In this document: positions 22,943-41,462 of the stretch, one piece after another
Layout of the letters: every line of letters begins with the position of its first letter
How positions within the stretch are numbered: the first letter of the stretch is position 1
DNA from: Nostoc sp. DedSLP01
GTDB taxonomy: Bacteria; Cyanobacteriota; Cyanobacteriia; Cyanobacteriales; Nostocaceae
DNA length: 55,725 bases
NCBI GenBank assembly: GCA_034530875.2
Contig: JAVRCJ020000042.1
Location: forward strand, 1 to 55,725
Reading direction: 5' to 3'
Notes under the pieces: model-generated
Seen by the model: the letters and a program-made list of their open reading frames with translations, nothing else
What the model was told of the DNA's origin: nothing
Databases searched by the model: none
Program-made: the position numbers and the translations under genes

Positions 22943-23157
22943 TCCTCACATTCCCAGATTTTTTAGAAGTGGCGCTTGTGTTAATGATATGACTTACGGA
23001 GTATTGGAGGTGTTTCAGGCTATGCGTCAGTAGTTTTGGAAAGCAATTATAGCTATAGCGATCGTATTTTTTGGAGATACGAAAATTAATATAAATAATA
23101 TAAATGTTTATACAGTATCTACTGCCAAGGAACCAAGGAAAAAATGTCTTGACAGTT

Positions 23158-23523
23158 TTAACCTTCTCGACTAGAAAAATCAGCTAAAATATCCCTGATT
23201 TCATTGGCAGCGATATCTTCTCGGTCAGATTTAGAATAAATCGTTAACAACAAAATACTTACAGGTGACTCCATTTGATAAATTAACCGATAACCAGCAC
23301 TTTTACCTTTTTGGATGTTACTGTTGCGAACTCTCACTTTGTAAACAATATATTCTTCACCTATACCAGCAATTCTATCTCCTACAATATTCCCTTGCTG
23401 TAATTGTTCAATAATCGGTTGAACATCAGAGCGAATATTGCGAAATCTCTTAGACAAGTCACGTAAGTTTTGTTTATATTCAGGAGTTAAATCAATAAAT
23501 ATTGATGGCTGTTCATTCGGCAT
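23158..23523 (-). CDS. Type II TA toxin, RelE/ParE (HigB2-like) family
   Basis: YKVRVRNSNIQKGKSAGYRLIY...LLTIYSKSD; overlaps the upstream partner gene. Confidence 0.88.
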   Translation of the reverse strand: MPNEQPSIFIDLTPEYKQNLRDLSKRFRNIRSDVQPIIEQLQQGNIVGDRIAGIGEEYIVYKVRVRNSNIQKGKSAGYRLIYQMESPVSILLLTIYSKSDREDIAANEIRDILADFSSREG

Positions 23524-23770
23524 CAATTCCCTCCCACATTTGGGATAGTGGTAGACGTTGCCCGATTTTAGCTTGTTGCAAAGCTCTTCTTAAACTAGCT
23601 TTAATCTCCTCAACAGGCGTATCGTCAGGGTCAATTTCTTCTGTATCTGTTGATTCTGGAACCAACACAATTACCCGAACCTGATGAGGATAATTGGTTT
23701 CTTGAATCGGCCGATCTAAAACTAAGTTGCCTTGAGAATCGATTTTACCAGTAAGTTCGATCGCTTTCAT
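23513..23770 (-). CDS. Probable cognate antitoxin
   Basis: 85-aa acidic protein directly upstream of and overlapping the RelE-type toxin. Confidence 0.78.
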   Translation of the reverse strand: MKAIELTGKIDSQGNLVLDRPIQETNYPHQVRVIVLVPESTDTEEIDPDDTPVEEIKASLRRALQQAKIGQRLPLSQMWEGIDAE

Positions 23771-24054
23771 CTGTTATCCACCTGATTTTTTAGAAGATCC
23801 TAACACGCCCAAAAATAAATTTAGTATTGATTAAAGCACCATACTTAGCAGAAAACAGACATATAATTACGCAATTAATTTTTTATACTTGTTAAAAGCG
23901 ATCGTATTTTTTGACTGGCTTTTATCCATGAAAAAGGCGCAAAGGATAACTCTAATTGGTAACCGTTATCAAACACGATTCACCTGAGTAGAAATGCAAG
24001 CAATTATCCTTCACACCGATAAATACAATTACAAAGATATCTATTAAATTATTT

Positions 24055-24963
24055 TTAAGGAATAGGAACCGAGCGCAATAATCGCTCAACAACAGTTCTA
24101 GAATTGCGCCCTCCTCTAGCAATGAGGCGATGGCAAATAACGTGAGGGACGAGAGTTTTTACATCATCAGGAATGGCATAATCACGCCCTAATAGAAAAG
24201 CTAGTGCTTGGGCAGCCCGTTGTAATGCCACTGTGCCACGAGGACTGACGCCAAGGGCGATTTCCTCATCTTGGCGCGTTGCCCGCACTAATTCGAGGAT
24301 GTACTGTTGCAACGAAGTTGCCACCCTAACTTGAGAGCAAAGAGAACGTAATTCCTGTAATTCTGCCAAGGTAATACAAGGCTGTAAATCGCCAAACTTT
24401 ACACCATTTTGGAGATTTTGCAGCATTTGTAGTTCTTCTGACTCAGAAGGATAGCCCAAACTCAAAGACAACATAAACCTATCCATTTGCGCTTCGGGCA
24501 GCGGAAAAGTACCTTGATATTCAATGGGGTTTTGAGTCGCAATTACAAAAAACGGTTGAGGAACTGCACGAGAGACACCATCCACTGTGACCTGATGTTC
24601 TTCCATAACTTCCAGCAAAGCTGACTGAGTGCGGGGTGTAGCGCGGTTAATTTCATCAGCTAGTAGCACATTGGCAAAGACTGGCCCCGGAAGAAAAGTA
24701 AATTCGCCGCTTTTTGGGTTCCAGATATTAGTACCAGTAATATCAGTCGGCAGTAAATCAGGGGTGCATTGTAGCCGTTGAAACTTGCCGTCTACCGAAC
24801 GAGCTAAAGATTTAGCAAGCAGCGTTTTGCCAACACCAGGAACATCTTCTAAGAGGGCATGACCACCAGCAAGTAAGGCGACTAGAACCAAGCGTATCGC
24901 CTCACTTTTACCAACGATAGTAAGAGTCAGATTTTGTGTTAAAGCGTCAATTTTTTCTCTCAT
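24055..24963 (-). CDS. MoxR family AAA+ ATPase
   Basis: EDVPGVGKT, QCTPDLLP.D, DEINRATPRTQSALLE, LPEAQMDRF; ATG at 24963 (upstream extension is STRR). Confidence 0.95.
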   Translation of the reverse strand: MREKIDALTQNLTLTIVGKSEAIRLVLVALLAGGHALLEDVPGVGKTLLAKSLARSVDGKFQRLQCTPDLLPTDITGTNIWNPKSGEFTFLPGPVFANVLLADEINRATPRTQSALLEVMEEHQVTVDGVSRAVPQPFFVIATQNPIEYQGTFPLPEAQMDRFMLSLSLGYPSESEELQMLQNLQNGVKFGDLQPCITLAELQELRSLCSQVRVATSLQQYILELVRATRQDEEIALGVSPRGTVALQRAAQALAFLLGRDYAIPDDVKTLVPHVICHRLIARGGRNSRTVVERLLRSVPIP

Positions 24964-25115
24964 GCAGCTTGGGGAGTGGGGAGTGGGGGCAGGGGAGGCA
25001 GGGGAGATGGGGAAGTGTGGGAAGTGTGGGAAGTGTGGGAAGTGTGGGGGGAAAGATTTCTTCCCCATCCTCCCACACCTCCCACACCTCTAATGCCCCA
25101 TGCCCAATGCCCTAT

Positions 25116-26195
25116 CTATTGTTCCCACTCAGCACTAAGAACTTCTCTAGCAACAATGCTATCGAGTTGAATTTGTGCTTTTAGGGCTTCGAGAGAAGGA
25201 AATTTTTGTTCGGGGCGTAAAAATTTGACTAGCTCTACAGCTAGTTTCTTACCATACAAATCACCAGACCAATCGAGTAGGTGTACTTCCACGGAGGCAG
25301 CAGCACCATTTACAGTTGGACGGTTACCGATATTCATGACGCCCAATATTTCAGTAGGAGAGACATCTGGGGTTTCACCTAGAAGGTAAACCCGGACAGC
25401 GTAGACTCCTTGGCGGGGCAAAAACTTTTCTTTTGGTAGCTGGAGGTTGGCGGTGGGAAAGCCAATAGTTCTGCCGAGTTGTTGTCCTTGAACGACTACA
25501 CCAAGGAGAGTGTAGGGGCGTCCTAGTAGCAGATTTGCGTTTTTGATGTCGCCTTCCTCAAGGGTTTGGCGAATCAATGAAGTGCTAATGCGGGCATCCT
25601 GAGTTGGAATACTACCGCTGCAACTGCTTTCGGTCGGCGAGTCACCTGTATAAGTTTGTAAGGGAACGATGGTAACGGGAATATTGTACTTGGCGGCGAG
25701 TAATTGTAAATCTTTAGCAGTACCACTGCGCTTTTTGCCAAAACAAAAATCTTCCCCAATACTAATTCGCTGGCATTGGAGTTGTTGGACAAGAATTTTT
25801 TCGACAAATTCTTCAGGGTTCAAAGCAGATAATTCTTTGTCGAAGGGTAATAATACAAGTTGTTCTACCCCAAGCGATCGCAATTGTTGGACTTTTTCAT
25901 CAAGTGGCGTTAACAAAGTCCGGGGTTGCCCCGTAAAAAACTCGTGTGGGTGAGGATCGAAGGTGACAACTGTCGAGTAAGTATATTGTTGATTTGTCAG
26001 TTGTTGATTTTCGTTAGGCTGTGGACTACTGACAACTGACAACTGACTACCAGCTTGCAATACTGGCTGAATTACCCTTTGATGACCAAGATGTACGCCA
26101 TCAAATTTGCCAAGTGCAACAGCAGTCGGCGTTAGTAGCCCTTCGGTCGAAGAAGCAACCCACACAGAACACCCATTTTGAGACAAATTTAGCAC
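25116..26195 (-). CDS. ribF: Bifunctional riboflavin kinase/FAD synthetase
   Basis: GKFDGVHLGHQ, TFDPHP, GRTIGFPTAN, NIGNRPTV, EVH. Confidence 0.96.
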   Translation of the reverse strand: MLNLSQNGCSVWVASSTEGLLTPTAVALGKFDGVHLGHQRVIQPVLQAGSQLSVVSSPQPNENQQLTNQQYTYSTVVTFDPHPHEFFTGQPRTLLTPLDEKVQQLRSLGVEQLVLLPFDKELSALNPEEFVEKILVQQLQCQRISIGEDFCFGKKRSGTAKDLQLLAAKYNIPVTIVPLQTYTGDSPTESSCSGSIPTQDARISTSLIRQTLEEGDIKNANLLLGRPYTLLGVVVQGQQLGRTIGFPTANLQLPKEKFLPRQGVYAVRVYLLGETPDVSPTEILGVMNIGNRPTVNGAAASVEVHLLDWSGDLYGKKLAVELVKFLRPEQKFPSLEALKAQIQLDSIVAREVLSAEWEQ

Positions 26196-26383
26196 GTGGA
26201 TTCTGAGATTTTAGGTTTATTTTAGCTATCAGTCATTAGTCATTAGTCATTAGTCATTAGTCATTAGTCATTGGTCATTAGTGAATAACCAATGCCCTAT
26301 GCCCTATGCCCTATGCCCTTTCCTGCTGAAAGCCTCCGATCGCCAATCTAATCTAAAATCTACAATTACTGCAATCGCAACCT

Positions 26384-27280
26384 TTAAACAGAAAACTTGC
26401 TAACAGGAAAAGATTCTGATAAGGGAACTGAGGTGGAAACTTGGAGTACGATGCCTTCCCGTGCCATAATTGCACCAGGAAACTTCGCCGCCGCTTGTTT
26501 GCCTACACGATCCAAAAAGTCATCATTGTGTGCCGGATCGTGGTGGTAAATCACCAAAGTTTTGACGTTAGCTGCTTGTGCCACTTTTACAGCTTCTTGC
26601 CAGGTAGAATGTCCCCAGCCAATTTTTGGGGATGTTGGCGAATGATATTCCTCGTCAGTGTAGGTGGAATCGTAAATTAGGATGTCGGCATTACGAGATA
26701 GCCAAAGCACATTATCGTCGAGTCGGTCGGGGAAATGTTCGGTATCGGTAATATAAACAGCAGCGCCATCGCGCCAGTTGACGCGATAGCCTATGGCTTC
26801 ACCTGGATGATTTAAAGGTGCTGTTTCGATGGTAATGTCATCAATATCTATTGGTTGCCCGGCTCGAATGTCATGGAAACTTAAATTGGCTTGCATAATC
26901 TGCAAGGGTACGGGAAAATTCGGGTGGAGCATTTGGTCGTTGAGGCGCTGTTCTATGGTAGAGCCATCAGGAGCGATCGCGCCGTAGATATGAAAGTCAT
27001 TCCCCTTAACAAATCCTGGAACAAAAAAGGGAAAACCCTGCATGTGATCCCAGTGAGAGTGGGTGAAAAATATATGAGCTTCTAACGGCATCTGGCGCAA
27101 TAATGATTGCCCCAAGACATGCAGTCCCGTACCACCATCAAAAATTAAGCGTTTACCGCCCACTTGCATCTCAACGCAAGGGGTATTACCGCCGTAACGA
27201 ACGGTGTGTGGCCCTGGACTGGGGATGCTGCCGCGAACCCCCCAAAATTGCACGGTAAATTGATTCTCTATCCTAGACAT
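26384..27280 (-). CDS. MBL-fold metallo-hydrolase
   Basis: FWGVRGSIP, YGGNTPC, THSHWDH, GWGHS, HHDP. Confidence 0.93.
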   Translation of the reverse strand: MSRIENQFTVQFWGVRGSIPSPGPHTVRYGGNTPCVEMQVGGKRLIFDGGTGLHVLGQSLLRQMPLEAHIFFTHSHWDHMQGFPFFVPGFVKGNDFHIYGAIAPDGSTIEQRLNDQMLHPNFPVPLQIMQANLSFHDIRAGQPIDIDDITIETAPLNHPGEAIGYRVNWRDGAAVYITDTEHFPDRLDDNVLWLSRNADILIYDSTYTDEEYHSPTSPKIGWGHSTWQEAVKVAQAANVKTLVIYHHDPAHNDDFLDRVGKQAAAKFPGAIMAREGIVLQVSTSVPLSESFPVSKFSV

Positions 27281-27578
27281 GGGTATTGTTTGCTGGACTG
27301 AGCGGGCGATAAATGAAAAAAATGTTACCTATTTGGTTTAAGTTTATGCTGTCTCACTGATTTTGTTCGGGGAAGGATTAGAGCCAAGATTTCTTGGTAA
27401 AACAGCATACCCTTTTTCTAACTGATTGTGTAAATGTCAACTATCTCTTCTAAACTAGAACTTTCCAGTTTTTAGAGCTTATGTGTATCCGTTATCTCAA
27501 GGGTGCCCCTACGTTATAGCCTACATTTTGCTCTGATGCATTTGATTAATTCCTGTTGTCTCTTAATTAATCAATAAT

Positions 27579-28376
27579 TCAGGGAAAGTTAAATTCCCAG
27601 TCAGACAATTTATCTAATCCGGTTGCGTAGGTGAGATTATATTGTAACGGAGTAATACTGATGTAGTTTTTACGTAGAACATGCACGTCTAATGGTACGT
27701 TTTGCGGCAGATTTAATCCCATTGGGGGTTCCACATCTTCAATTACTTCTCCAGTTAACCAGTAGTAGGTTTTTCCACGAGGATCGACTCGTTTATCAAA
27801 TACATCTATATATCGGCGTACTCCTTGACGGGTAAGAGTCACTCCAGCAATTTCTTCCCACTCAACAGCGGGAACATTGACATTAAGCAACATTAAATCT
27901 GGCAGTGATTTTTGAGCTAACTGGTCTAAGAGAATTTTGGCAAACTTAGCAGCAGGTTGAAAGTTTTTTGAGACATGGCTGGTGAGACTGATGGCTATAC
28001 TGGGAATGCCTTCAATTAGTCCTTCCATCGCCGCAGAAACAGTGCCAGAATACAAAATTTCTGTTCCCAAATTCGCCCCTTGATTGATGCCAGAGAGAAC
28101 AAAATCTGGGGGACTCTCTAGCAAAGCCCACAGCGCTAACTTGACGCAATCTGAAGGCGTGCCATCGCAAGCCCAAGCTTTGATGGCGGGATGAAAAATC
28201 GATTCTACAATTTCGGCGCGAATTGGTTGGTGCAAAGTTAATCCATGCCCAGTTGCCGATCGCTCTCGGTCTGGGCAAACTACAGTTACATCATGGCCTG
28301 CTTGGGCTAAGTGGTTAGCTAAGGTACGAATACCGACAGCAGAAATGCCATCATCGTTGCTAATTAGTAATTTCAT
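27579..28376 (-). CDS. surE: 5'/3'-nucleotidase SurE
   Basis: [33 protein letters not shown]. Confidence 0.97.
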
Positions 28377-28650
28377 AGGTATCAGGCAAACAGAAAATTG
28401 GGCATAGGGTATTGGGTATTATTTGGTCATTTGTCATTTGTCTTTTGTTGGTTGTTGTTTGTCAATGACAGCCGTCACAACGAGGAGGAAAAAAATGTGC
28501 TCCCTTGGCTAATGGCATCTAAACTAGTAAAACAAGGGTAATTCTGGCTACTGCCTTTGGTTTAGCAATGGCATCTCACTAGAATTATTTTGTAAACAGT
28601 CCATAGCTCTGAACTATAGACTAATGACTATAGATAATGACTAATAACTA

Positions 28651-29643
28651 ATGACTAGCAATTTAGAAGCTCAACTTTTAGCACTGCGGCATCAAGGAGA
28701 ACAAGCGATCGCCGCCGCTGATACCCTAGAACGTCTAGAAGAACTCAGAGTTAGCTATCTGGGCAAAAAAGGAGAACTCGGGGCGCTGTTGCGAAGTATG
28801 GGGCAGCTGAGTGCAGAGGAGAGACCGGTAATTGGCGCGATCGCCAATACAGTCAAAGAATCCCTGCAAACTAGTCTAGATCGGCAACGTGCCGCCCTGG
28901 AAGCCGCACAAATTCGCTCTCAGTTAGAGGCTGAGACTCTGGATGTGAGTATGCCGGGAATTTACCGCCCCCAAGGTCGCATTCATCCCCTCAATGGAAT
29001 CATTGACCGGGCGCTGGATATCTTTGTCGGCATGGGTTACACCGTGGCTCAAGGGCCAGAGATGGAAACAGATTACTACAATTTCGAGGCGCTGAATACT
29101 CCGCCCGACCATCCAGCGCGTGATATGCAAGATACTTTTTACCTGCCAGACGGCAATCTTCTTAGGACTCATACATCTTCAGTGCAAATTCGCTACATGG
29201 AAAGAGAGGAACCACCAATTCGGGTTGTAGCTCCAGGGCGAGTTTATCGGCGAGATAATGTAGATGCTACTCACTCAGCAGTTTTCCATCAAATAGAACT
29301 TTTAGCCATTGATGAGGGATTAACTTTTACAGACCTCAAAGGCACAATTAAGGTATTTTTACAATCAATATTTGGCGATTTACCGATTCGTTTCCGTGCC
29401 AGTTATTTCCCATTTACCGAACCTTCTGCGGAAGTAGATTTGCAGTGGAATGGTCGCTGGCTGGAAGTTATGGGCTGCGGTATGGTCGATCCAAATGTCC
29501 TGAAAGCTGTGGGTTACGATCCAGAAATTTATACTGGGTTTGCTGCCGGTTTTGGTGTAGAACGCTTTGCAATGGTATTACATCAAATTGATGATATTCG
29601 TCGTTTGTATGCCAGCGATTTGCGATTTTTGCAGCAATTTTAA
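28651..29643 (+). CDS. pheS: Phenylalanine-tRNA ligase alpha subunit
   Basis: [35 protein letters not shown]. Confidence 0.99.
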
Positions 29644-29686
29644 GCATACATAATAATTAGTACTGCTAGCAAGGTAACAATAAATA

Positions 29687-29902
29687 ATGACCCAATTTTC
29701 GAGGTTAGATCGAGTTTTAGAAAGCGTCGAAGACTTATCAATAGATGAGCAAGAAACATTAATCGAGCTGATACGTCATCGGTTGGCAGAAAGGCGACGT
29801 TCTGAAATTGCTGCTAATATCGCTCAAGCACAGGTAGAATACCAAACGGGTAAAGTCTTTCGTGGTACAGTTACTCAAATAATGGATGAGCTACGCAAGT
29901 GA
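29687..29902 (+). CDS. Probable antitoxin
   Basis: 71-aa protein with a GTGA overlap into the downstream toxin. Confidence 0.75.
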   Translation: MTQFSRLDRVLESVEDLSIDEQETLIELIRHRLAERRRSEIAANIAQAQVEYQTGKVFRGTVTQIMDELRK

Positions 29903-30183
29903 GAACTGTAGTTCTGGCATCATCGTTTAAACGAGCATTTAAGCGATTGGTAGGACGACAGCCACAATTAGAAGAACGAATTCAGGAGCGGTTAGCACTA
30001 CTAACCGCCGATCCTTTCCATCTACTGTTGCAGACCCATAAACTCAAAGGCAAGCTGTCTGGAGCTTGGGGATGTTCAGTGGATTATGATTGTCGCATTG
30101 TCTTTAATTTTGTGCAAAATATAGAATCTGGTGAAGAGGAAATTTTGCTAATTGATATCGGCACTCATGATGAAGTTTACTAA
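29899..30183 (+). CDS. Type II TA toxin, RelE/StbE-YafQ mRNA interferase family
   Basis: SFKRAFK, HKLKGKL, CSVDYDCRIVF, DIGTHDEVY. Confidence 0.9.
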   Translation: MRTVVLASSFKRAFKRLVGRQPQLEERIQERLALLTADPFHLLLQTHKLKGKLSGAWGCSVDYDCRIVFNFVQNIESGEEEILLIDIGTHDEVY

Positions 30184-30267
30184 ATTTTCAGTGCTGCTAT
30201 ATTGTTTTTCTACTAATGAATTTTGGATTTGGCATTGAATAATTCAAAATTCGCACCATGTAACCTG

Positions 30268-30339
30268 ATGAAGCTGGCTTGTGATGAAAAGAAACGGTAA
30301 TCAAATTTGAACAAAAACGGGTTTGATTTCATGATTGAT
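30268..30339 (+). pseudogene. BrnT-like toxin N-terminal remnant
   Basis: ATG at 30268 reads MKLACDEKKR*SNLNKNGFDFMID, compared with the BrnT pattern M.F.WDE.K...N..KHG.DF; internal stop, truncated. Confidence 0.55.
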
Positions 30340-30397: not shown

Positions 30398-30985
30398 ATG
30401 ACTGCAATTAATAGTAAACATCTAACACTTGAGGAGTATTTGAAGTATGACGATGGCACAGATAGGCAGTATGAACTGGTGGCAGGTGAGTTAGTTGCAA
30501 TGCCACCCGAAAGCCCCAAAAATATTCAGATATCTCTATTTGTGCTGGTAAATTTCCTCAAGTTTGTTCCGATTAATCGGTTGAGTAATAAAGTTGAAAT
30601 TGTTGTGGCTGGTTCTCGTGCAACAACTCGCATTCCTGACTTAGTTGTGCTGACAGATGAACTGGCAATAATTTTAGAAGGCGCAACACGGTCTACGGTA
30701 ACTTTGGATATGCCACCTCCAGCATTAGTTGTCGAAGTAGTTTCTCCTGGCAAAGCTAACGAAGACCGGGACTATCGCTACAAACGTTCCGAGTATGCTG
30801 CAAGAGGAATTGCTGAATATTGGATTGTCGATCCACAAAGGGACATAATTACTGTACTGGTATTAGTTGATGGGCTTTATGAAGAAACTAGATTTTCCGG
30901 AAATACAGCCATAGTTTCTACCATCTTAAGAGAATTACAGCTAACCGCAGAGCAAGTACTCAAAGCTGGAGATAGCAATATTTAG
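30398..30985 (+). CDS. Uma2 family (PD-(D/E)xK) putative endonuclease
   Basis: LTLEEYL, YELVAG, RIPD, LVVEVVSPG, RDY..KR.EYAARGI.EYWIVDP. Confidence 0.92.
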   Translation: MTAINSKHLTLEEYLKYDDGTDRQYELVAGELVAMPPESPKNIQISLFVLVNFLKFVPINRLSNKVEIVVAGSRATTRIPDLVVLTDELAIILEGATRSTVTLDMPPPALVVEVVSPGKANEDRDYRYKRSEYAARGIAEYWIVDPQRDIITVLVLVDGLYEETRFSGNTAIVSTILRELQLTAEQVLKAGDSNI

Positions 30986-31169
30986 AAGGTAGATAGAGGA
31001 AGAGATTTGAGAGGTGCGATCGCACAATTTTATTGGGAGCTTATAGTTATCTCAATAGATTTAAGATGAGTCAGTTTAATAATATCATTTAAGCTTTTTT
31101 CTTATTTGTGTTTCAGCATTTTATTAAGTTACTTATAGTAGAGTAATTTAAGTGTAGTGGTGAAATTAA

Positions 31170-31592
31170 ATGAAGTATGATGCAAGTCAAATAAAGGTAA
31201 TAAATATACCTCAACTAGAACAGCTAAAAGATCGAAAGTGCTGCCGAACATACGTTTATCGCTTCACTGATACATTGCCTGAACAAAATATTATTGACGA
31301 AATTGCAAAAAGCTTGGAGAAAAGATTCACATTTTCAAAGGAAGTATATGAGATTCCTGAAGATGTTGAAATTTGTGCATCTATTGTTATAGAGCGTTTA
31401 CAAGATGACGAAGCCAGGGTTTGTGTTTTGACAGACCAACCGGAAGAATCTTGCGTTTACATTTTTGGGATACGTACTCTGCCGTGCAAAATTGAAGAAA
31501 GGTTTGGAATTCTACAGTCGATTCAGGGGGAACAGCGAGAGAATTGGATTGATAAAAGTGCGATCGCACCCAATCCCGCAAAACAGGAATAA
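31170..31592 (+). CDS. Hypothetical protein in a HIP1-bounded cassette
   Basis: 140-aa ORF with ATG; no family recognised. Confidence 0.65.
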   Translation: MKYDASQIKVINIPQLEQLKDRKCCRTYVYRFTDTLPEQNIIDEIAKSLEKRFTFSKEVYEIPEDVEICASIVIERLQDDEARVCVLTDQPEESCVYIFGIRTLPCKIEERFGILQSIQGEQRENWIDKSAIAPNPAKQE

Positions 31593-31684
31593 TCAACTCT
31601 GGTGTTTCCCACAGTAAACTCCTTGGCGTCTAAGCTTACCAGATTAAAAATATTAGTAAATTATATTAACCACCTTTTGAGACT

Positions 31685-31774
31685 TTATTTAACTATTCCT
31701 GAATGATCTGGAATATCTGCCAAAGGTTCAAATCTGCCACCTAAGTATTTAGCAAGAAACTCTTGGGCGATCGC
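31685..31774 (-). repeat. Duplicated 3' end of the S9 peptidase gene (copy of 32575-32664)
   Basis: 86/90 nt identical by manual alignment at offset 890; includes the stop codon and ends in GCGATCGC. Confidence 0.92.
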
Positions 31775-31877
31775 ATCTTTTAATTAAACGATTTTCTAGT
31801 CTGAAAAATCAGCCTGCTACTAACAAAAATTATTGGTAAACTAGAGGCTACGCCAGTTCTATTGAATGATTTATTTT

Positions 31878-32171
31878 ATGTTTGCTGAAACCTGCTCTCG
31901 CTACGTTACCCGTAACGCTGAAATTTTAAGTGGAGAGCCAATTATTATAGGTACTCGGACATCTGTTCGTGCCATTGTCGGTTTGTGGCGATTGGGGATT
32001 ATGCCAGAAGAAATCCTCAGCCATTTGCCACACCTGACCCTGGCACAAGTGTTTGATGCCTTAAGTTTTTATCTCGATCATCAAACAGAGATTAATGAAT
32101 ACATTGAACGGAATCGAGTACCAGATGAATTAATACATCCATCTGTAAAAGCTATATTGGGCACATCATGA
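31878..32171 (+). CDS. DUF433 family protein (putative antitoxin)
   Basis: EILSGEPII.GTR..V, EEIL...PHLTLAQVFDALSFY. Confidence 0.9.
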   Translation: MFAETCSRYVTRNAEILSGEPIIIGTRTSVRAIVGLWRLGIMPEEILSHLPHLTLAQVFDALSFYLDHQTEINEYIERNRVPDELIHPSVKAILGTS

Positions 32172-32512
32172 CAGTTTGTGCTGCACTTTACAGCGATGAA
32201 GATATGTCAGCGTTAGTTGCTACCTTATTGCGCTCCCGTGGTTTAGATATTACAACTGTTGCCGAACAAGCAACCCTCGGCAAAAACGATCGCGAGCAAC
32301 TTGAATTTGCAACTTCTGTTGGTAGATGTATTCTCACACATAACCGTATCGATTTTGAGCGTTTGCATCTCCAGTATATAGAGGAGAACAAAGAACATTT
32401 TGGTATTATAGTTGTGCCTCAGAAAAACGCTTATGAAGTCGCCCAACGAATTGGTATTCTGGTAAGCTCACTAACGGCTAATGAAATTAGGAATCAATTG
32501 TTGTATGCATGA
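32168..32512 (+). CDS. DUF5615 family PIN-like protein (putative toxin)
   Basis: LYSDEDM, D.EQLEFA...GR.ILTHN..DF, H.GII; ATGA overlap with DUF433. Confidence 0.88.
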   Translation: MTVCAALYSDEDMSALVATLLRSRGLDITTVAEQATLGKNDREQLEFATSVGRCILTHNRIDFERLHLQYIEENKEHFGIIVVPQKNAYEVAQRIGILVSSLTANEIRNQLLYA

Positions 32513-32536
32513 ATCCTTGCAAATTAAAAATATTAA

Positions 32537-32563: not shown

Positions 32564-32574
32564 ATTTTGAGATT

Positions 32575-34464
32575 TTATTTAACTATTCCTGAATGACCTG
32601 GAATATCTGCCAAAGGTTCAAATCTGCCACCTAAATATTTAGCAAGAAACTCTTCAGCGATCGCAAAAAAATGCAAGCGGTTTTCTGGTCTAGCAAAACC
32701 ATGTCCTTCATCGGGGTAAAGTACATATTCCACTGGTAAACCAGCTTGTTGCATTGCGTTAACAATTTGGTCGCTTTCTGCTTGTTTCACCCGCGGATCG
32801 TTTGCACCTTGACCGATGAGTAAAGGTTTTTGAATTTTGTCAATGAAAAATAAAGGCGATCGCGATTTCAAAAACTCTTCTTGTGTCTCTAAATTACCAA
32901 TACGATGATATAAGCTTGCCTTGAGTGGTTCCCAATAAGGCGGTATAGTTTGAATCAAAGTAATCAAGTTACTGGGGCCGACAATATCCACGCCAGCAGC
33001 AAAAACTTCTGGTGTAAAAGTCAACCCCACCAAAGTTGCGTAACCACCATAAGAACCGCCCATAATTGCAATCTTTTGGCGGTCAGAAATGCCTTTTTCT
33101 AGTAGCCAGTTCACAGCATCAATTAAATCATCGTGCATTTTGCCTGCCCATTCTCGGTTTCCAGCATTCAAGAACGCCTTACCGTAACCAGTGGAACCTC
33201 GAAAATTTACTTGCAAAACAGCATAACCCCGGTTAGCTAGCCATTGTGCTTGCGAGTTGAAGCCCCAGCGATCGCGCGCCCAAGGGCCGCCGTGAACCAG
33301 CAGTACTGTTGGTAAATTCTGGCTAGGTATTCCCACAGGAGTGGTTAGGTAACCGTGAATAGTTAAACCATCCCGCGCCTCATAAGAAATTGGTTGTATT
33401 GAAGCTAACTGCAACCCATCAAGTTTGGGTTGGTTACTAAAGAGGAAAGTGCTAGTTTTTGATTCTCGGTTGTAGGCATAGTAATAAACTGGGCCATCGT
33501 CAGTGTTGTAAGCCACTAGCCAGTTTTTATCTTCTAAGTCGCGGCTAATTATGGAGAACTCCCCAGAACGTACTTTGGCAATCTCTTCAAAATCAGCAGC
33601 AATACTCTGGTCAATTACCTGCCATTCCTGTTTGTCTTTGTAGAAAGAAACTGCTTGGATAACTCGTGTCACTGGATGAATCTCTATGCCGACAATATCG
33701 TATTGCTCATCTTGGGCAATGACAGTTTCTTGACGAGTATCTAAGTCAATAGCTAACAAGCGTTCGGCATTAGCATCATGATTGGCTTCGATATAAAGTG
33801 TTTTACCATCAGCCGAAAAGCTAACAGGACCTCCTTCTTCTTCTGGCCCCCAGTGGCGAAGAATTTCCCATTGTTTATCCCTGGTTTCCCGGAATAATAA
33901 ATCATCACCACCGTCAGGGGTAGTAGCTCTTGCTGCACGTATTTGGAAATTAGCATCAGGTGTCCAGCTAACAACGTTACCAGGGTTGTCAGTGTCAAAC
34001 TCCACCGCACCATTTTTTAAGTTGATGCGGTAAACGTCGAACTTTTGGGGATTGTTCAAGTTCAAACCTACCAGTACTTGGTCTGGAAATTTAGGTTCTA
34101 CTTCCACTAAGCCTACTTTTACACCTTGAAATGGTGTTAAATCGCGGACAATTTTTGACTCAATATTGACTAAGTAGAGGTGAAAATTTTCATCACCGTC
34201 TGAGTCCTGCATGTAAATCAACTCATTGGGGTTATGAGTCCAAAAGAAAACGCGGATACCACGTTTTTTGTCAGCAGTTAATATTTGGTCATCTTCTTGT
34301 CCCACAGTTCGCAACCATACCTGCAAGATATTTTGTTCGTTGGGGGCGATATATGCCAAATACTTGCCATCAGGTGAGAGTCTTGGGCTAGTTTTTTCAG
34401 GATTTCCAAACAGAATTTCGCGCGGAATCAATGGTGGTAGTGAGGTTGCTGTTGCGGATGACAT
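32575..34464 (-). CDS. S9 family serine peptidase (prolyl oligopeptidase/acylaminoacyl peptidase-like)
   Basis: Beta-propeller N-terminus, HGGPW, GGSYGG, GANDPRV, DEGHGF. Confidence 0.95.
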   Translation of the reverse strand: MSSATATSLPPLIPREILFGNPEKTSPRLSPDGKYLAYIAPNEQNILQVWLRTVGQEDDQILTADKKRGIRVFFWTHNPNELIYMQDSDGDENFHLYLVNIESKIVRDLTPFQGVKVGLVEVEPKFPDQVLVGLNLNNPQKFDVYRINLKNGAVEFDTDNPGNVVSWTPDANFQIRAARATTPDGGDDLLFRETRDKQWEILRHWGPEEEGGPVSFSADGKTLYIEANHDANAERLLAIDLDTRQETVIAQDEQYDIVGIEIHPVTRVIQAVSFYKDKQEWQVIDQSIAADFEEIAKVRSGEFSIISRDLEDKNWLVAYNTDDGPVYYYAYNRESKTSTFLFSNQPKLDGLQLASIQPISYEARDGLTIHGYLTTPVGIPSQNLPTVLLVHGGPWARDRWGFNSQAQWLANRGYAVLQVNFRGSTGYGKAFLNAGNREWAGKMHDDLIDAVNWLLEKGISDRQKIAIMGGSYGGYATLVGLTFTPEVFAAGVDIVGPSNLITLIQTIPPYWEPLKASLYHRIGNLETQEEFLKSRSPLFFIDKIQKPLLIGQGANDPRVKQAESDQIVNAMQQAGLPVEYVLYPDEGHGFARPENRLHFFAIAEEFLAKYLGGRFEPLADIPGHSGIVK

Positions 34465-34575
34465 ATTTTTATTCTCTAATTGGGGAATAATTCGTAATTG
34501 ACTATCTTTAATTTAGACAAGTTGTTTGTAGGGTAGGTATTATTTCCAGTCTAGCGTGGTCGTTTACTTGTAAAT

Positions 34576-34716
34576 GAGTCTTTGATATTCGCCGACGAGT
34601 CTTTGATACTCGGTGACGAGTCTTTGATACTCGCGAACGAGTCTTTGATATTCGGCGACGAGTCTTTGATACTCGCGAATGAGTCTTTGATACTCGTGAA
34701 TGAGTCTTTGATACTC
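34576..34716. repeat. 21-bp tandem array, 7 units of GAGTCTTTGATA(C/T)TC plus 6 variable nt
   Basis: Units start at 34576, 34597, 34618, 34639, 34660, 34681 and 34702. Confidence 0.95.
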
Positions 34717-34831
34717 AGAAATACGAAATTATGGCAAAGCAGAGATGTCGCATCGTAATATCTCTACACACACGAAATTCCTAGCGAGTGTTATTCATCC
34801 AAGCTTCTTGGAAAATATGGTACAAGTGGCA

Positions 34832-35125
34832 TACAGCGTTTTTCATCTGAACGACAATTTTCGATAAGGGCGCAAAGCTGTTCATTGGTGTCATCTTAAG
34901 CTCAAACTCTTGCTCCACAATCGTTTTACCCCACCCCCAACCCCTCCCCTTGGCAAGGGGAGGGGAAGTTTTGCGTCAGCAAAGCCGGGGTGGGGTAACG
35001 CGGATCTTGATGGGAAGTGAGTAGAACTCGCTCATCACGTTTTCATCAGGGTTTCACGTTAAGTTGACACCAATGTATAGCTTTGCACCCCTACAACGCG
35101 GTCTATTTACCTGAAAATTGCTGTA
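34832..35125. mobile_element. Outer miniature element (TACAGC...GCTGTA ends) carrying nested insertions
   Basis: Imperfect terminal inverted repeats tacagcgtttttca / tgaaaattgctgta. Confidence 0.55.
34883..35075. mobile_element. MITE with CATTGGTGTCAACTTAA-type terminal inverted repeats, copy 1
   Basis: cattggtgtcatcttaa ... ttaagttgacaccaatg; homologous copy at 44196-44359. Confidence 0.85.
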
Positions 35126-35134
35126 AAAACAACG

Positions 35135-36577: not shown

Positions 36578-36832
36578 AATTAATGCTGCGATGCACCCAT
36601 ATTCTTGAATACTGAATATAGCTTTTGCTTTTGAATTCATGGTTCAGTAATTCATCTGAATATTGACTAGAGGGATTTCTAGTTAAGTGAGGTAGACAAA
36701 GTTTTGAAACGCAAAGAAACGCAGAGTCAAGCGCAGAGTTACGCTGAGGTTTGCCCAATTTAAAAAGTGAAGTACTTTGTAACTAATTATCAATTATAAT
36801 TAATTATTAATTTCACAAATATTAAATTAAAT

Positions 36833-37279
36833 ATGAACGAAGAATTAAAGCATAAGTTTTATATCAGCACCGATAAAGGTAAATTAGATATTAAAATTAT
36901 TCATGATTTTTTACAAACTTCTTATTGGGCTGAAAATATACCATTAGCGATTGTGGAAAAATCAATACAAAATTCTTTGTGTTTTGGATTGTATGAAGGG
37001 GAACAACAAGTTGGTTTTGCTAGAGTCATTACTGATTATGCAACTTCTGCATTATTAAAAGATGTTTTTATTTTGGAGCCTTATCGAGGGCAGGGTTTAG
37101 GAAAATGGTTTGTAGAATATATTTTAGAATATGCGGAATTACAAGATATTCAAAGGTGGATGTTAGGTACGAAAGATGCTCATGGACTTTATCGGCGTTA
37201 TGGGTTTAAAAATTTAACTGAGCCGGAAAGAATCATGATAAGAATTCAGCACTCAGGAGCTAAAAGTCAGAATTTATAA
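36833..37279 (+). CDS. GNAT family N-acetyltransferase; C-terminus altered by an insertion
   Basis: SYWA, GFARVITD, YRGQGLGK, TKDAHGLY..YGF. Confidence 0.92.
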   Translation: MNEELKHKFYISTDKGKLDIKIIHDFLQTSYWAENIPLAIVEKSIQNSLCFGLYEGEQQVGFARVITDYATSALLKDVFILEPYRGQGLGKWFVEYILEYAELQDIQRWMLGTKDAHGLYRRYGFKNLTEPERIMIRIQHSGAKSQNL

Positions 37280-37367
37280 GGATTTCAGTAGAATTAAGAT
37301 ATTTATCAAACCTTGGTCTAATTCTTTAATTATTCTGACTCCTGAATTCTGACTCCTGAATTCTTAC
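37241..37367. mobile_element. Miniature inverted-repeat insertion in the GNAT 3' end
   Basis: Ends agaattcag.../...ctgaattct; flanked by the 11-bp direct repeat GAATCATGATA at 37230-37240 and 37368-37378. Confidence 0.75.
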
Positions 37368-37496
37368 GAATCATGATACGTTTAAATCTTAATAGCGATC
37401 GCTCTTAACAAACTGCTAGTAGATTCATCGCCAAGCTACATTGACACCTAGATTACAATCATAGGTATAGTTTCTCTGACTGGAGTTATTCATCGG

Positions 37497-38579
37497 GTGA
37501 TTCAATCCGATTCAATGACAAAGCACACCAGACAACTATTACTGACTGTCCTCAAAGTCGTTGTCTTATGCCTAACACTGCTCTTACTGGGAACAAGCAA
37601 CAGTTGGGCGCAAATTGCTAGTGACAGTAAAATCGCTCCTTTAATTGAGAAGCTGATAGATAACGACGCCCACATTCGCAGCATTGCGGCAGATACATTA
37701 GTTAATATCGGTTCGCCAGCAGTGCCATCTCTAATTGAGGCTTTGAAAAATCAAGATCGCAATCTTCGCTGGCACGCGGCTTCTGTTTTAGGAGATTTGG
37801 GTGCAGAAGCAGCACCAGCCGTCCCGGCTTTAAGCGCGGCGTTGCAAGATGAGGATGCACAAGTCCGCCTTTACGCTACCTTAGCTTTAGGAAATATTGG
37901 TACGGCAGCAAAGCCAGCAGTTCCATCTTTGATGGCGGCATTACAAGACAAGGAACAATACGTCAGGATTTATGTACCTTCTGCACTTAGGAAAATTGGC
38001 GTCGAAGCGAAAGTTGCTATTCCAGTACTAACTGCTGCCTTAAAAGATAATAACCCCACAGTACGTTACAATGCCGCCTACGCTCTGGGTGCAATGGGTA
38101 CAGAAGCAGTATCCGCTGTCCCGAATTTAATTAGCCTGTTAAATGATGACCTGTCTTACGTGCGTTTAGGTGCTATCAAAGGTTTGGGAGGAATAGCAGC
38201 AGGTTTTCAGGACAAAGCAAACGCTTTACCTACTTCCAAGTTGCAGAAAGTCATTTTAGACTTTGAGAAGGTATTAGCAACCATCCAAGAATACAAAGAA
38301 AAATTTACAGAAACCGACATTAGGCTGATACGCCGCCCTTTGAATGCGCTAAAAGCAGAAAAAGAAACTCGCCTCTTCGATAGAAGTTTGGAATGGGTAT
38401 TTGGGCATAAATTACTCTTGGGAATTGCCGCCTACGTTATCTTATTGCCTAGTGTATGGTTAATTCTCTTGCGGGTAGCACCTTTATGGTTGTTGAAAAT
38501 TAACAATGCCCTCAAACCCTACAAAGATTTTTCCCTACCATTTGTCAGCGTTAATGTACTTCCATCGGTGAGAGGTTAA
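37497..38579 (+). CDS. HEAT/PBS-lyase repeat protein with signal/TM segments, probably 3'-truncated
   Basis: Repeated AVP.LI.AL.D....VR..AA.ALG.IG units; ends shortly after a TM segment at the edge of an AT-rich insert. Confidence 0.85.
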   Translation: MIQSDSMTKHTRQLLLTVLKVVVLCLTLLLLGTSNSWAQIASDSKIAPLIEKLIDNDAHIRSIAADTLVNIGSPAVPSLIEALKNQDRNLRWHAASVLGDLGAEAAPAVPALSAALQDEDAQVRLYATLALGNIGTAAKPAVPSLMAALQDKEQYVRIYVPSALRKIGVEAKVAIPVLTAALKDNNPTVRYNAAYALGAMGTEAVSAVPNLISLLNDDLSYVRLGAIKGLGGIAAGFQDKANALPTSKLQKVILDFEKVLATIQEYKEKFTETDIRLIRRPLNALKAEKETRLFDRSLEWVFGHKLLLGIAAYVILLPSVWLILLRVAPLWLLKINNALKPYKDFSLPFVSVNVLPSVRG

Positions 38580-38688
38580 GGTAATAGCACATTTGTCAAG
38601 AGGTGTGGAAAAGTATTAGTGACGCTATATGTGTATGCATTTTTAGAATTTTATCAAAAAATAAGGGATAAGTTTAGCTTCACGGGCT

Positions 38689-38955
38689 ATGCTAGAAACA
38701 TCCAGTCAATACTACTGGAATATGAACAACTCTAATCCTGATAAAAATCTTGATATAGAAGAAATTGCTGAGTATATCGCTAGGGCATCTCAAAAGATAG
38801 TTGATGAGATGAAAAAACAAGCTGAAAATTATTCAGGTTTTGAGGAAACTGTTCAAAAAATGAAAGATGAATCATTAATAGAGCAACAAAAGCATCAAGA
38901 GGATTTTAATGAAAGAAGAATTCAAATTAAAGGAAAATTTAATAGAAGAAGATGA
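38689..38955 (+). CDS. Hypothetical charged helical protein in the AT-rich insert
   Basis: 88-aa ORF overlapping the next gene by 47 nt. Confidence 0.55.
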   Translation: MLETSSQYYWNMNNSNPDKNLDIEEIAEYIARASQKIVDEMKKQAENYSGFEETVQKMKDESLIEQQKHQEDFNERRIQIKGKFNRRR

Positions 38956-39850
38956 TTTAAACTTAAAACATTTTATTTATTTAGATAAAAGTAAGTTACA
39001 TTCATATTCTTCTCAATTATTTGAAGGGTTAGTACAACTTAGAAGATTAATAGAAAATGAAGGTACTAAATCTACACAAAGTTCAGGTGAAGAATATACA
39101 GAAAAGGTTCAAGAAGATAGTAAAGAAGGAGAGATAAGTGTTGGGCCTAAAAATTATGCGGGTGGTCTTAGTGGAAAAACAATGGATAAAACAATTCATA
39201 GAGATGGATATAAAAAAGGAGTTAATACGAAAAGTGATGAATACTTATATTCTATGGCTGAAGATATTGTTGAACATGACTATGGTTATTTGAAGTTTGA
39301 AGAAATTTTAAGCAATAAAGGAATTTTAAAAAAAATAAATGATATAGAGGAATTACAAAAGTATTCATCATTAATAAAAATAACTGGGGTATGTAGATTT
39401 ACAGACTGGGATTCAATTATAGAAGCATTCAATAGTGATAATGTAATAAATCTTTTTATAGAGAAATCTAATCAAAATACTGATAAGGCTTTTAAAAAAG
39501 ATTCTCAACAAAAGAAAAAAGAAAAAAATGATTTCAAAGCTACACTAGAAATAATTAAAGCATTTTCAATTGGATCTGTTACTGTCAATACAAATATAGG
39601 AAACTCAAATTTAATAGGAACTCTAAACCAAGAATATCTTCGCCTAACAAGAGATCAACTTAGATCCGCATATATTCTGCCTGGGGATGTAGAAATGACA
39701 ATAGTTGGATTTATTCCAAGGAGAAAAATAGAAAAAATTACCTTCCCAGGTCTTTCAGGAACAATAGACATGACAGAAGTATGGAAAGGTTGGACAGGAG
39801 AAATTGATGCAGTAATAGAACCAATAGCAATATATACCGAAATTAAATAG
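38909..39850 (+). CDS. Hypothetical protein (tentatively DUF6414-like) in the AT-rich insert
   Basis: 313-aa ORF; N-terminal FIYLD..KLHSYSSQLFEGL and C-terminal IEPIAIY recall DUF6414-type proteins (from memory, unverified). Confidence 0.75.
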   Translation: MKEEFKLKENLIEEDDLNLKHFIYLDKSKLHSYSSQLFEGLVQLRRLIENEGTKSTQSSGEEYTEKVQEDSKEGEISVGPKNYAGGLSGKTMDKTIHRDGYKKGVNTKSDEYLYSMAEDIVEHDYGYLKFEEILSNKGILKKINDIEELQKYSSLIKITGVCRFTDWDSIIEAFNSDNVINLFIEKSNQNTDKAFKKDSQQKKKEKNDFKATLEIIKAFSIGSVTVNTNIGNSNLIGTLNQEYLRLTRDQLRSAYILPGDVEMTIVGFIPRRKIEKITFPGLSGTIDMTEVWKGWTGEIDAVIEPIAIYTEIK

Positions 39851-39983
39851 GGGCAGATATAGCATAGCTGGCATCAGAGGGTCAAAATCATCGTGAAATT
39901 GACCGAAATTGGGTAAAGTCGCTGGGATTACACCTCCAGTTAATACACCACCTAGTGTTGTGCGATCGTTAATACCATGAATA

Positions 39984-40014
39984 TGTAGAGACGTTGCAAT
40001 GCAACGTCTCTACA
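39984..40014. repeat. Small palindromic dispersed repeat (GTAGAGACG...CGTCTCTAC family)
   Basis: tgtagagacgttgca-a-tgcaacgtctctaca; degenerate relatives at about 40059-40087, 34740-34768 and 48682-48750. Confidence 0.85.
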
Positions 40015-40105
40015 GGGATTTTCCTATCATGCACAATCGTTTTTATACCAATACGGTTCAGAGACGCGATCGATCGGCGTCTCTACAAGTCTTTTGGTGT
40101 GATGC

Positions 40106-40342
40106 CTAAAATACTGTACCATCACTTTCGATTTGGATGGGGGACGTACCACTTGTTCTGAGTTCAGCTGCAATTTTACGCCCAGCTGTCCAAGTTCCAC
40201 TTGGAGAATTTTTACTAGTGGCATTTCTTGGGGATTCATATTCAACTTTTCGCGGACTTTAGCGGCGATATAATCTAAGAGAATTACCGTTAAAGCGCGC
40301 CATTCAACTATTATTTCTGATTCTACTGGATGGGGCGATCGC
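40106..40342 (-). pseudogene. 3' fragment of a URC4/urg3 (DUF1688) family gene
   Basis: Reads RSPHPVESEIIVEWRALTVILLDYIAAKVREKLNMNPQEMPLVKILQ, then after a 1-nt frameshift near 40200 (G)GTWTAGRKIAAELRTSGTSPIQIESDGTVF*. VEWRALTV/GGTW.AGR/SDGTVF is the URC4 C-terminus. Begins at HIP1 40335-40342. Confidence 0.85.
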
Positions 40343-40474
40343 CAAACATCTAAATCTTTTACATTATGAAATTAATTCTTGTTTATCATTAGTCATTAGT
40401 CATTTGTTATTAACCTAACTTGGTAGAGTAAGTTAATGTTAGCTTAAGAAGAAATTGTAAACTCGACAGAGCTT

Positions 40475-40729
40475 ATGACAATAAAGATTAATATTGAACT
40501 TCCAAATGATGTTTTTTCAGCACTCCGCAGTAACCCAGAAACCTTTGTTCAGGAAATGCGTTTGGCAGCAGCTGTCAAATGGTATGAAGTTGGTATGGTT
40601 TCCCAATCTAAGGGTTCTGAAATCGCAGGAGTAAGTCGTCACCAATTTCTAGAAGCACTCAATCGTTACAATGTTTCACCTTTCCAAGTGACTCCAGAAG
40701 AATTAGCAGAGGAGTTAGGACGTGAGTAG
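40475..40729 (+). CDS. UPF0175 family protein (putative antitoxin)
   Basis: EMRLAAAVKWYE.G.VSQSKG.EIAG.SR..FL..L. Confidence 0.9.
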   Translation: MTIKINIELPNDVFSALRSNPETFVQEMRLAAAVKWYEVGMVSQSKGSEIAGVSRHQFLEALNRYNVSPFQVTPEELAEELGRE

Positions 40730-40824
40730 ACGATGGGTTGTGAACGCTTCTCCATTGATTGTACTTACTAAAATTAATCAGGTTCATCTGCTTTTTGAAC
40801 TTTGTGATGAAGTTATTATTCCTA

Positions 40825-40950
40825 TAGGAATCCGGTTTGATTACTGAAATTATTTGTGTAGGTAGGGAGTAGGGAATGGGGAGTAGGGAGTGGGAAAGAA
40901 GCCTTGTTTGGGTGTACTGATTTTTTTCACCAAATCAAATATGATTTTTA
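40825..40950 (+). mobile_element. About 126-bp MITE with TA target duplication, copy 1
   Basis: TA|taggaatccggtttgatt...aatcaaatatgattttta|TA; removing it restores CCT-AGT-GGT in frame; homologs at 49194-49318 and 55246-55372. Confidence 0.9.
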
Positions 40951-41149
40951 TAGTGGTATTGTTGCAGAAATCTGTGTTGCATCAGATAACGATCCTGCAA
41001 AAGTGTGGATTTTGAATGAAGGATCTAGCTATATTCGAGATGTGGAACAAATCGATCCGGTGATTGCTGCATGGGATCTTGGTTTGGGAGAGAGTCACGT
41101 TCTCACCTGAATATATAAAAACCTTGGCTATGAAGCAATTTTAGACGAT

Positions 41150-41170
41150 GCCTGCGGCGGGCTACGCCTA
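41150..41170 (+). mobile_element. 21-nt small dispersed repeat inserted into a CGAT^CGC (HIP1-like) site
   Basis: gacgat|gcctgcggcgggctacgccta|cgcgcc; removing it restores LDDRAA. Confidence 0.75.
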
Positions 41171-41383
41171 CGCGCCGCAAAAATCGCAGCAGTTGCTTTG
41201 GGGATGTCGGTACGGGGAACTTTAGGTGTTATTCTGCTTGCTAAACAAGAAGGTAAGCTAAAAGCTGCTAGACCAATTTTTGAGCAACTGACTCAGGTTA
41301 ACTTTAAAGTCAGTACAGAAATTTTGGAGTCAGCACTTAGACTTGTTGGTGAGTAGTACATTAACAAACCACATACGGAAAAT

Positions 41384-41462
41384 GCGATCGCAACGATAGG
41401 CCAAAGCTTCTAGGATGGGAAGTAAGAACAATATGCCGCGAAACATCGTTTTGCTTTGGCAT
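41384..41462 (-). pseudogene. 5' fragment of a GTP cyclohydrolase II-like (URC1-type) gene
   Basis: ATG at 41462 reads MPKQNDVSRHIVLTSHPRSFG, matching the HIVLTSHP N-terminal motif recalled for this family; ends at HIP1 41384-41391. Confidence 0.65.

Follow-up and report, generated by a model that had tools for sequence, protein, structure and literature searches.

HIP1 octamers at the joints of small accessory gene arrays in Nostoc

A contig of 55,725 nucleotides from Nostoc sp. DedSLP01 (JAVRCJ020000042.1; the window hereafter, meaning the whole contig) carries between 23057 and 41462 several small accessory modules lodged among conserved genes, some of which end at the highly iterated palindrome HIP1 (GCGATCGC), an abundant 8-letter palindrome with six G+C. 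HIP1 occurs 55 times in exact form in the window, which is contig C42 of an 8.57-Mb genome (G000), and 7,591 times in the genome (0.89/kb, or one site per about 1.1 kb). A first-pass annotation made from the sequence had drawn four HIP1-bounded cassettes here and proposed that HIP1 sites are dispersed crossover points for gain, loss and exchange of such cassettes. The proposal was followed up by searching 126 genomes of the same genus (Gxxx; contigs are Cn), the nearest of which are about 88–94% identical to G000 in core genes. It is partly confirmed: the core idea holds, and the feature is real but smaller in extent than the annotation had it. In this genus accessory arrays are built and pruned through HIP1 joints, a minority route over the whole genome and a prominent one at slots for toxin-antitoxin (TA) and defence genes.

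The repeats and HIP1 copies on which the four cassettes were drawn (23057/23897, 31014/31558, 31767/32657, 40335 and 41384) are all located (Table 1). Compared with relatives, 23058, 23898, 31016, 31767 and 32657 are real HIP1 joints or their target, 41384 is one on the cassette side only, and 31560 and 40335 are not joints, leaving two of the four cassettes (cassette 2 at its right site, cassette 4 at its left) without the HIP1-to-HIP1 form given to them. The three TA-type pairs counted in the annotation each have at least one partner with a family match: RelE (weak, below cut-off), DUF433 with DUF5615, and UPF0175, whose partner is interrupted. Also as annotated, no recombinase or transposase adjoins them: none was found in the 50 open reading frames (ORFs) of the window scanned for families, and PF00589 and PF00239 have no match on the contig.

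Table 1. Features of the window that bear on the accessory modules and their joints.
Feature	Position	Strand	Basis and remarks
Cassette 1 left site, HIP1 variant GCGATCGT inside 17-bp direct repeat AGCGATCGTATTTTTTG	23057..23073		repeat search; exact HIP1 here in many relatives
RelE-like toxin gene	23158..23526	-	PF06296, E 1.6e-4, below cut-off; plasmid match annotated RelE/ParE
Putative antitoxin, 85 aa, no family match	23513..23770	-	proposed from overlap with toxin start
Cassette 1 right site, identical HIP1 variant in 17-bp repeat	23897..23913		repeat search, relatives
pheS, conserved left anchor	28651..29643	+	family match, relatives
Antitoxin-like ORF and YafQ toxin; module in 5/19 arrays	29687..30183	+	family match
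Uma2 (PF05685) module; 3' part with HIP1 in 6 relatives, one parent of chimeric junction	30398..30985	+	family match, relatives
HIP1 closing Uma2 module	31016..31023		homology to G065/G027 breaks off exactly at HIP1: true breakpoint
140-aa orphan ORF; module in 4/19 arrays	31170..31592	+	array ORF clusters
HIP1 conserved with both flanks in relatives, no breakpoint	31560..31567		homology continues through in G065, G014, G062
Orphan S9 peptidase 3' end, stops at HIP1 31767-31774	31675..31775	-	101-bp duplication
DUF433 and DUF5615 pair (TA-type); in 9/19 arrays	31866..32512	+	family match
Functional S9 3' end with in-gene HIP1 32657-32664, recurrent crossover site	32565..32665	-	duplication, relatives
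S9 family peptidase, conserved right anchor	32575..34464	-	family match, relatives
HEAT-repeat gene replacement, 88-aa ORF and DUF6414; no HIP1 at either end	38563..39904	+	relatives
DUF1688 gene 3' remnant with native HIP1 at 40335-40342	40107..40363	-	relatives
Cassette 4: UPF0175 antitoxin and interrupted PIN-like partner; right end is HIP1 41384-41391	40365..41391	+	family match, relatives
GTP cyclohydrolase II-like gene 5' stub (419 aa in relatives)	41399..41462	-	relatives

Conserved pheS and S9 peptidase genes enclose, at a fixed locus, a variable array of small accessory cassettes, and the gap between them ranges from 191 to 7,049 bp across the 18 relatives with both anchors. The array census covers 19 genomes including the window; among 20 fetched loci, those of G016 and G026 were dropped as lacking pheS. 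The cargo comprises YafQ, BrnT and DUF433/DUF5615 TA pairs, Uma2, GmrSD with HEPN (PD-T4-2/NsnA-like), a Drt4/Drt6-like reverse transcriptase, an AAA and DUF4276 pair, and others. The TA role of the DUF433 pairs, like the PIN-like label of DUF5615 and of the UPF0175 partner, is presumed here. In the array of G070 (L049:7616-9169), the Drt4/Drt6-like defence reverse transcriptase is a stand-alone cargo gene.

The 90-bp duplication described in the annotation exists and ends at HIP1, although it measures 101 bp with 95% identity (31675-31775/32565-32665); it is a second copy of the S9 gene 3' end. Such orphan S9 3' ends number 13 in 12 of the 19 arrays, ending at the in-gene HIP1 beside differing cargo; one of them has a variant HIP1 and another an SDR5-like insert in HIP1 (for these 21-bp inserts the name SDR5 is our assumption from the motif). 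The clearest product is found in G018, in which the S9 tail is followed by HIP1 and then by the 3' end of an unrelated Uma2 gene. Its parents are at hand, the native S9 flanks in 17 genomes and the native Uma2 flanks, with a HIP1 of their own, in six; both parents carry HIP1, and the product is joined there without further homology. The opening 6–17 bases of this Uma2 flank recur in four other orphan tails, and the founding events may therefore be few in number. In G018, pheS, S9 and recQ resemble those of G057 (98.1/92.9/96.0%) and Uma2 has lost its 5' part, a geometry to which replacement by linear DNA anchored on the pheS side would fit better than insertion of a circle. In six orphan tails, that of the window included, weak S9-like similarity extends about 30 bp beyond HIP1 (past 31767 in the window), a sign of older duplication; the right-hand module of these six starts in G039 exactly at HIP1 behind an unrelated gene.

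Cargo also moves between lineages. G011 and G013 share 98.3% identity in the DUF433 pair and 89.9% in S9 and recQ, so the pair has moved recently, and in G011 the informative sites pass from the donor-like to the own-clade state within 32640-32677, a stretch around the HIP1. Over the arrays, an abrupt one-sided partner is seen at 38 of 65 HIP1 sites against 1,480 of 23,448 (6.3%) other 8-mers, the sites not being independent of one another. Between G018 and G057 (array L041), a DUF6745 gene surrounding an insertion sequence (IS) with a DDE_Tnp_1_4 transposase is split or chimeric at a HIP1 inside the gene, with 14-bp identity; this IS was ruled out as a HIP1-targeting element, as its ends lie 135–190 bp inside the HIP1 sites.

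A second hypervariable locus (L212-L219), HIP1-dense and situated between an ABC-type gene and a conserved operon, holds the cassette 4 pair in eight genomes. Here 17 of 31 HIP1 sites have an abrupt one-sided partner versus 535 of 9,936 (5.4%) other 8-mers (G077, a different locus, was excluded, and these sites too are not independent), pairwise homology stops on HIP1 in several pairs, and G045 has its modules in another order. The locus also has duplicated units of 120 bp and TA modules that are shuffled; the 120-bp unit was not counted as an exact HIP1 joint, since it ends about 16–20 bp past HIP1.

Cassette 1 (23057-23913) is carried by 22 of 28 evaluable relatives (G102 was excluded), with one remnant and five relatives without it. 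In G062, one HIP1 joins the left flank of 23058 to the right flank of 23898, which is the empty allele that alignment to relatives had been proposed to reveal, and again nothing other than HIP1 is shared at the joint. Since 22 of the 28 carry the cassette and one of the five losses has the single-HIP1 form, cassette 1 is an old resident with one clean HIP1-to-HIP1 allele. Both of its ends deviate alike from HIP1 (last base T), and exact HIP1 stands at both in relatives; this suggests copying or homogenisation between the ends in the window lineage.

Cassette 2 was drawn between copies of a 12-bp repeat, GTGCGATCGCAC (31014/31558), and is ruled out as a HIP1-to-HIP1 unit, the right site lying inside a conserved flank and the G062 junction about 27 bp left of 31560. 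Cassette 4 replaces the middle of a GTP cyclohydrolase II-like/DUF1688 operon. Its left end was not at 40335, where the HIP1 is native to DUF1688, and its left junction (40363-40365) is 21–23 bp from that site. On the right, homology to G016 stops at HIP1+1 (41384); this HIP1 is where the cassette itself ends, and after another 7 bp, at 41399, the gene stub begins again. A 130-bp insert (40823-40952) in the toxin-like gene of cassette 4 exists in dozens of copies across the genome and is likely a miniature inverted-repeat transposable element, and a 21-bp SDR5-like insert lies within the cassette at about 41150-41170. In L208 (G070:C75), near its match to window 41412, the GTP cyclohydrolase-like gene is interrupted almost where it is in the window, with HIP1 about 2 bp from the junction. 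No full cassette match was found in the plasmid collection for three queries.

The same combination, HIP1 with a one-sided duplicated flank, was then followed through the rest of G000. A first test with 1,591 repeats and shifted ends gave little: HIP1 was terminal in 39, and only the 50–99 bp class exceeded the null maximum (15 vs 14). A null of random distant HIP1 pairs (36 vs 0.8) ignores local paralogy and was not relied on. With a matched test, 11 of 50 local repeats had a shared HIP1 at their end, compared with 5.2 under the null. HIP1 was one-sided in 25 of 84 repeat placements, compared with 12.7% when all 8-mers are taken; the remaining 8-mers that rank high as terminal ones look like CRISPR repeat ends. 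One-sided HIP1 pairs enclose a match to five TA, Uma2 and XisI families in 7 of 26 cases, versus 256 of 9,800 for plain pairs. HIP1 is enriched next to TA-type genes: 7 of 14 DUF433 genes have one in the 100 bp upstream, versus 5.5% of genes, and it occurs within 50 bp downstream of Uma2 (12/97), PIN (4/18) and XisI (3/15), versus 3.7%; for these figures the contig under study was excluded and several distance windows were tried. Uma2 and XisI, with 102 and 17 matches in G000, both often adjoin HIP1, and these nucleases may have a role at HIP1. The genome also encodes nitrogenase and XisH/XisI genes, which suggest a heterocyst former.

Ten TA, XisHI or Uma2 loci in G000, all with family matches, are bracketed by HIP1 with a one-sided duplicated flank, and six of these loci were then checked prospectively against 14 relatives. 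For C6:168544, homology begins again at the very first base of HIP1 in 7 of the 14 and two bases into it in two others, and five are empty alleles by coordinate overlap. At C13:140888, a 571-bp module is missing from G065 in exact HIP1 register. At C6:87728, nine of the 14 have one HIP1 and one flank copy, two carry the TA genes without duplication, and none has the duplication; the one at C27:58286 is likewise absent from all of 11 relatives. Relatives were uninformative at C13:180182 and C9:112446. The former locus (C13:180182-181229) lies at the 3' end of a segment of a nitrogenase component 1 gene and has a PIN and DUF2281 pair between repeats that end in HIP1. Elsewhere in the genome (C39:20447-23671), a 429-aa gene is in tandem copies, and three repeats of about 360 bp each end exactly at HIP1, a pattern suggesting that the gene was amplified through unequal crossover between HIP1 sites.

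The genome-wide breakpoint test that the annotation had called for was made on unselected alignments (G014 and G016 against G000, over 800 and 400 kb, and G031 against G046, over 180 kb), giving 157 large events with 314 ends. A shared terminal HIP1 is present at 6 of the 314 ends against 0.74 expected, or about 1.2 (1.16–1.35, P 0.0008-0.002) under a conservation-aware null, in which cut points were simulated inside the real alignments. Among 61 clean indels, nine have an overlap of 7–14 bp, of which three are HIP1 or HIP1-like. HIP1 accounts for 2.8% of chance 8-bp direct matches in G000 and for 51% of those with at least six G+C, so that three of nine is above the unweighted expectation and within the GC-weighted one.

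These results are explained, in our judgement probably, by host recombination that uses HIP1 as its main microhomology, with a crossover of HIP1 x HIP1 between otherwise unrelated DNA. HIP1 would offer a ready-made 8-bp crossover to host recombination instead of to a cassette-encoded enzyme. DNA of a relative or of a sister chromosome, probably entering by transformation in the former case (G000 has a ComEC-family gene), would pair by ordinary, presumably RecA-dependent homology on one side, in a conserved gene; a slot with different cargo would offer no homology on the other side, and the second joint would be made there as HIP1 x HIP1. The product would hold both alleles in tandem, with HIP1 and 15–140 bp of flank duplicated on one side only around a cassette of 0.5–2 kb. 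Repeated rounds would stack TA and defence modules beside core genes, and HIP1 x HIP1 crossover in cis would delete modules or duplicate them in tandem. Alternatively, the one-sided duplication might come from a HIP1-bounded circle entering at a resident copy. Because HIP1 makes up half of the chance GC-rich 8-bp matches, passive use of the commonest of these may account for the joints, and active targeting, with HIP1 as a hotspot promoted by methylation or nicking, is putative.

Several findings weigh against microhomology at HIP1 as the general route. Of the large events, only 5 of 157 (about 3%) end at HIP1 and most junctions are elsewhere; empty alleles, two-parent chimeric junctions and enrichment over conservation-aware nulls agree in showing HIP1 sites to be crossover points, but for a small share of large indels genome-wide. 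The signal comes mainly from G014 (5/192 ends), G016 against G000 giving 1/94 (P 0.23), the closest pair G031/G046 none of 28 ends (0/62 with the first filter, 0/28 with the final one), and G046 against G000 none of 66. The last comparison was kept out of the pooled count, as G046 was already in use (6/380 if included). Relatives are 85–95% identical, which resolves junctions to a few bases at best, and the 13 orphan tails may trace to as few as two to four founding events. Two of the eight named boundaries (31560 and 40335) fail, four of the five TA-less alleles lost cassette 1 at other positions and not HIP1-to-HIP1, and the replacement in the HEAT-repeat gene (Table 1), where 1,342 bp stand in place of 1,334 bp, is a counter-example, being HIP1-free at its ends; its DUF6414 is likewise array cargo in G038. 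In G013 and G104, HIP1 is missing from a TacA/GNAT cassette at the position that corresponds to the G000 junction. The donor-like tract of G011 stops no more than about 35 bp from the S9 HIP1 and has no long anchor, so that a circle or a HIP1-promoted crossover fits equally, and a mosaic analysis of S9 for a long donor anchor gave no clear tract.

A recombinase or nicking activity specific for HIP1, encoded by the host and working in trans to excise HIP1-to-HIP1 circles and re-insert them at other HIP1 sites, would make a genuine system of dispersed cassettes, and we regard it as a possible though rather unlikely source of the joints. It would account for a 783-bp insert in G014 with an exact 8-bp HIP1 duplication, for the G011 tract bounded near HIP1 on both sides, and for the single HIP1 variant shared by the 17-bp repeats at the ends of cassette 1; the site-specific HIP1 recombination of Synechococcus PCC 7002 and the fixed bond at which SDR5 inserts (both as cited in PMC4390886), and the boost of integration by methylation (available text of bioRxiv 10.1101/2024.09.10.611283), point in the same direction. 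Against it, duplicated flanks of 15–140 bp are what one-sided homology would leave, simple circle insertion would not remove the Uma2 5' part in G018, and only about 3% of events use the 7,591 available sites. An electrophoretic mobility shift assay detected no HIP1-binding complex, according to the available part of PMC13756078. The passive expectation is, moreover, already high: HIP1 pairs are two of the 5–8 exact 8-bp matches between the S9 end and Uma2 in three of the four genomes checked. A bolder version, to which we give a similarly low weight, makes HIP1 a methylation-licensed universal attachment site, at which a host activity might cut or pair so that any HIP1-bounded stretch could be captured at some 7,600 sites; the whole chromosome would then be a dispersed, integrase-free integron, and the benefit of defence genes would maintain HIP1.

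Coincidence or alignment artefact, in which dense and conserved HIP1 sites stop alignments, lie in flanks by chance or arise by mutation after insertion, is very improbable as a general explanation, and at the pheS–S9 array it is already largely refuted. One HIP1 per 1.1 kb leaves room for it, purifying selection on HIP1 has been reported (available text of PMC13756078), and 31560 and 40335 are actual coincidences, of the kind about which the annotation had cautioned. Yet the conservation-aware null and the control of equal-length gaps (2/404 vs 1.8 expected; small indels 3/416 vs 1.6) fail to reproduce the HIP1 excess, and two-parent chimeras and empty alleles in exact register cannot stem from alignment bias.

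Duplication of a gene 3' end is the usual attL/attR scar. That the joints are scars of integrase or transposase elements (att duplication or integron) with the enzyme gene since lost is nonetheless barely credible: the duplicated S9 3' end is present in attL/attR-like form, tyrosine and serine recombinases are encoded in G000 outside the window contig and the G018 array holds its IS, but no integrase is found in the array ORF clusters scanned from 18 relatives, the integron integrase TIGR02249 has no match over cut-off in G000, the IS ends do not coincide with the HIP1 sites, and duplicated flanks at different loci have only HIP1 in common.

The resemblance to integrons noted in the first-pass annotation holds for the outcome and not for the machinery. 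Accessory cassettes rich in TA and anti-phage genes are stacked beside a fixed site in changeable order, as in integrons; here, however, there is no IntI and no attC, the cassette ends share only an 8-mer, and the resident flank is duplicated. A crude pattern search of 22500-42000, without covariance model, found one RYYYAAC..GTTRRRY core pair, at 39642 and away from the cassette ends, and no element-encoded integrase was found in the window ORFs or in the array ORF clusters scanned.

Homology-facilitated illegitimate recombination prefers GC-rich matches. As described for Acinetobacter, Streptococcus and Pseudomonas (in the available text of PMC6382021), it resembles the microhomology route proposed here in having one homologous anchor and a second joint at few matching bases; the microhomology here is instead one fixed, methylated, genome-wide motif, and the anchor and RecA dependence are conjectural. 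Recombination at HIP1 itself is already known from experiments. A HIP1-bounded smtB deletion (Gupta 1993) and HIP1 plasmid recombination (Akiyama 1998; Robinson 1997), as relayed in PMC13756078 and PMC4390886, are crossovers between two HIP1 sites without other homology as here, while those were single laboratory events or plasmid assays, and the present cases are natural, recurrent in the genus, and include gains and allele mergers in TA and defence arrays. In its available parts, the literature establishes a HIP1-flanked 352-bp deletion, HIP1 plasmid recombination, SDR5 insertion and methylation-dependent transformation gains (PMC4390886, PMC13756078, 10.1101/2024.09.10.611283, PMC5861425, PMC9239245, PMC3025956, PMC6382021). 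SDR5 also has HIP1 as target in Nostocaceae (PMC4390886 and PMC5861425, in part) and SDR5-like inserts split several joints studied here, but SDR5 is about 21 bp long, has no cargo and splits HIP1 instead of duplicating it. Some lineages have exchanged the palindrome for another, as Calothrix PCC 7103 has for GGCGCC (PMC4390886). Kamoku and Nielsen (bioRxiv 10.1101/2024.09.10.611283) found that HIP1 promotes chromosomal integration, as a transformation enhancer or Chi-like hotspot, with two homology arms and unmapped joints; the available portion of that preprint has no passage on illegitimate or site-specific joints. The natural signature, HIP1 with a one-sided duplicated flank, was not found in the literature searched, nor was any paper that places the ends of natural indels, or TA cassettes, at HIP1, in a search to which subscription journals were mostly out of scope and in which Elhai 2008 or supplements may hold related observations.

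The function of HIP1 has been debated for three decades, and recent work points to transformation and not to crossover positions. Natural products with both parents, a searchable signature and named loci make a role of HIP1 in gene capture testable, and offer an integrase-free route by which heterocyst-forming cyanobacteria could accumulate TA and anti-phage genes. They also carry a warning, that HIP1 in constructs can yield one-arm or rearranged integrants.

Two further places in the window vary among relatives. Between the S9 peptidase gene and recQ, a 21-bp tandem repeat (34544-34732) differs in copy number and is followed by a multi-copy element at about 34832-35126. Just left of the region described here, atpB-atpE lie next to secA in few relatives only, and most are split at the junction (window 17079-22001), which marks a rearrangement point.

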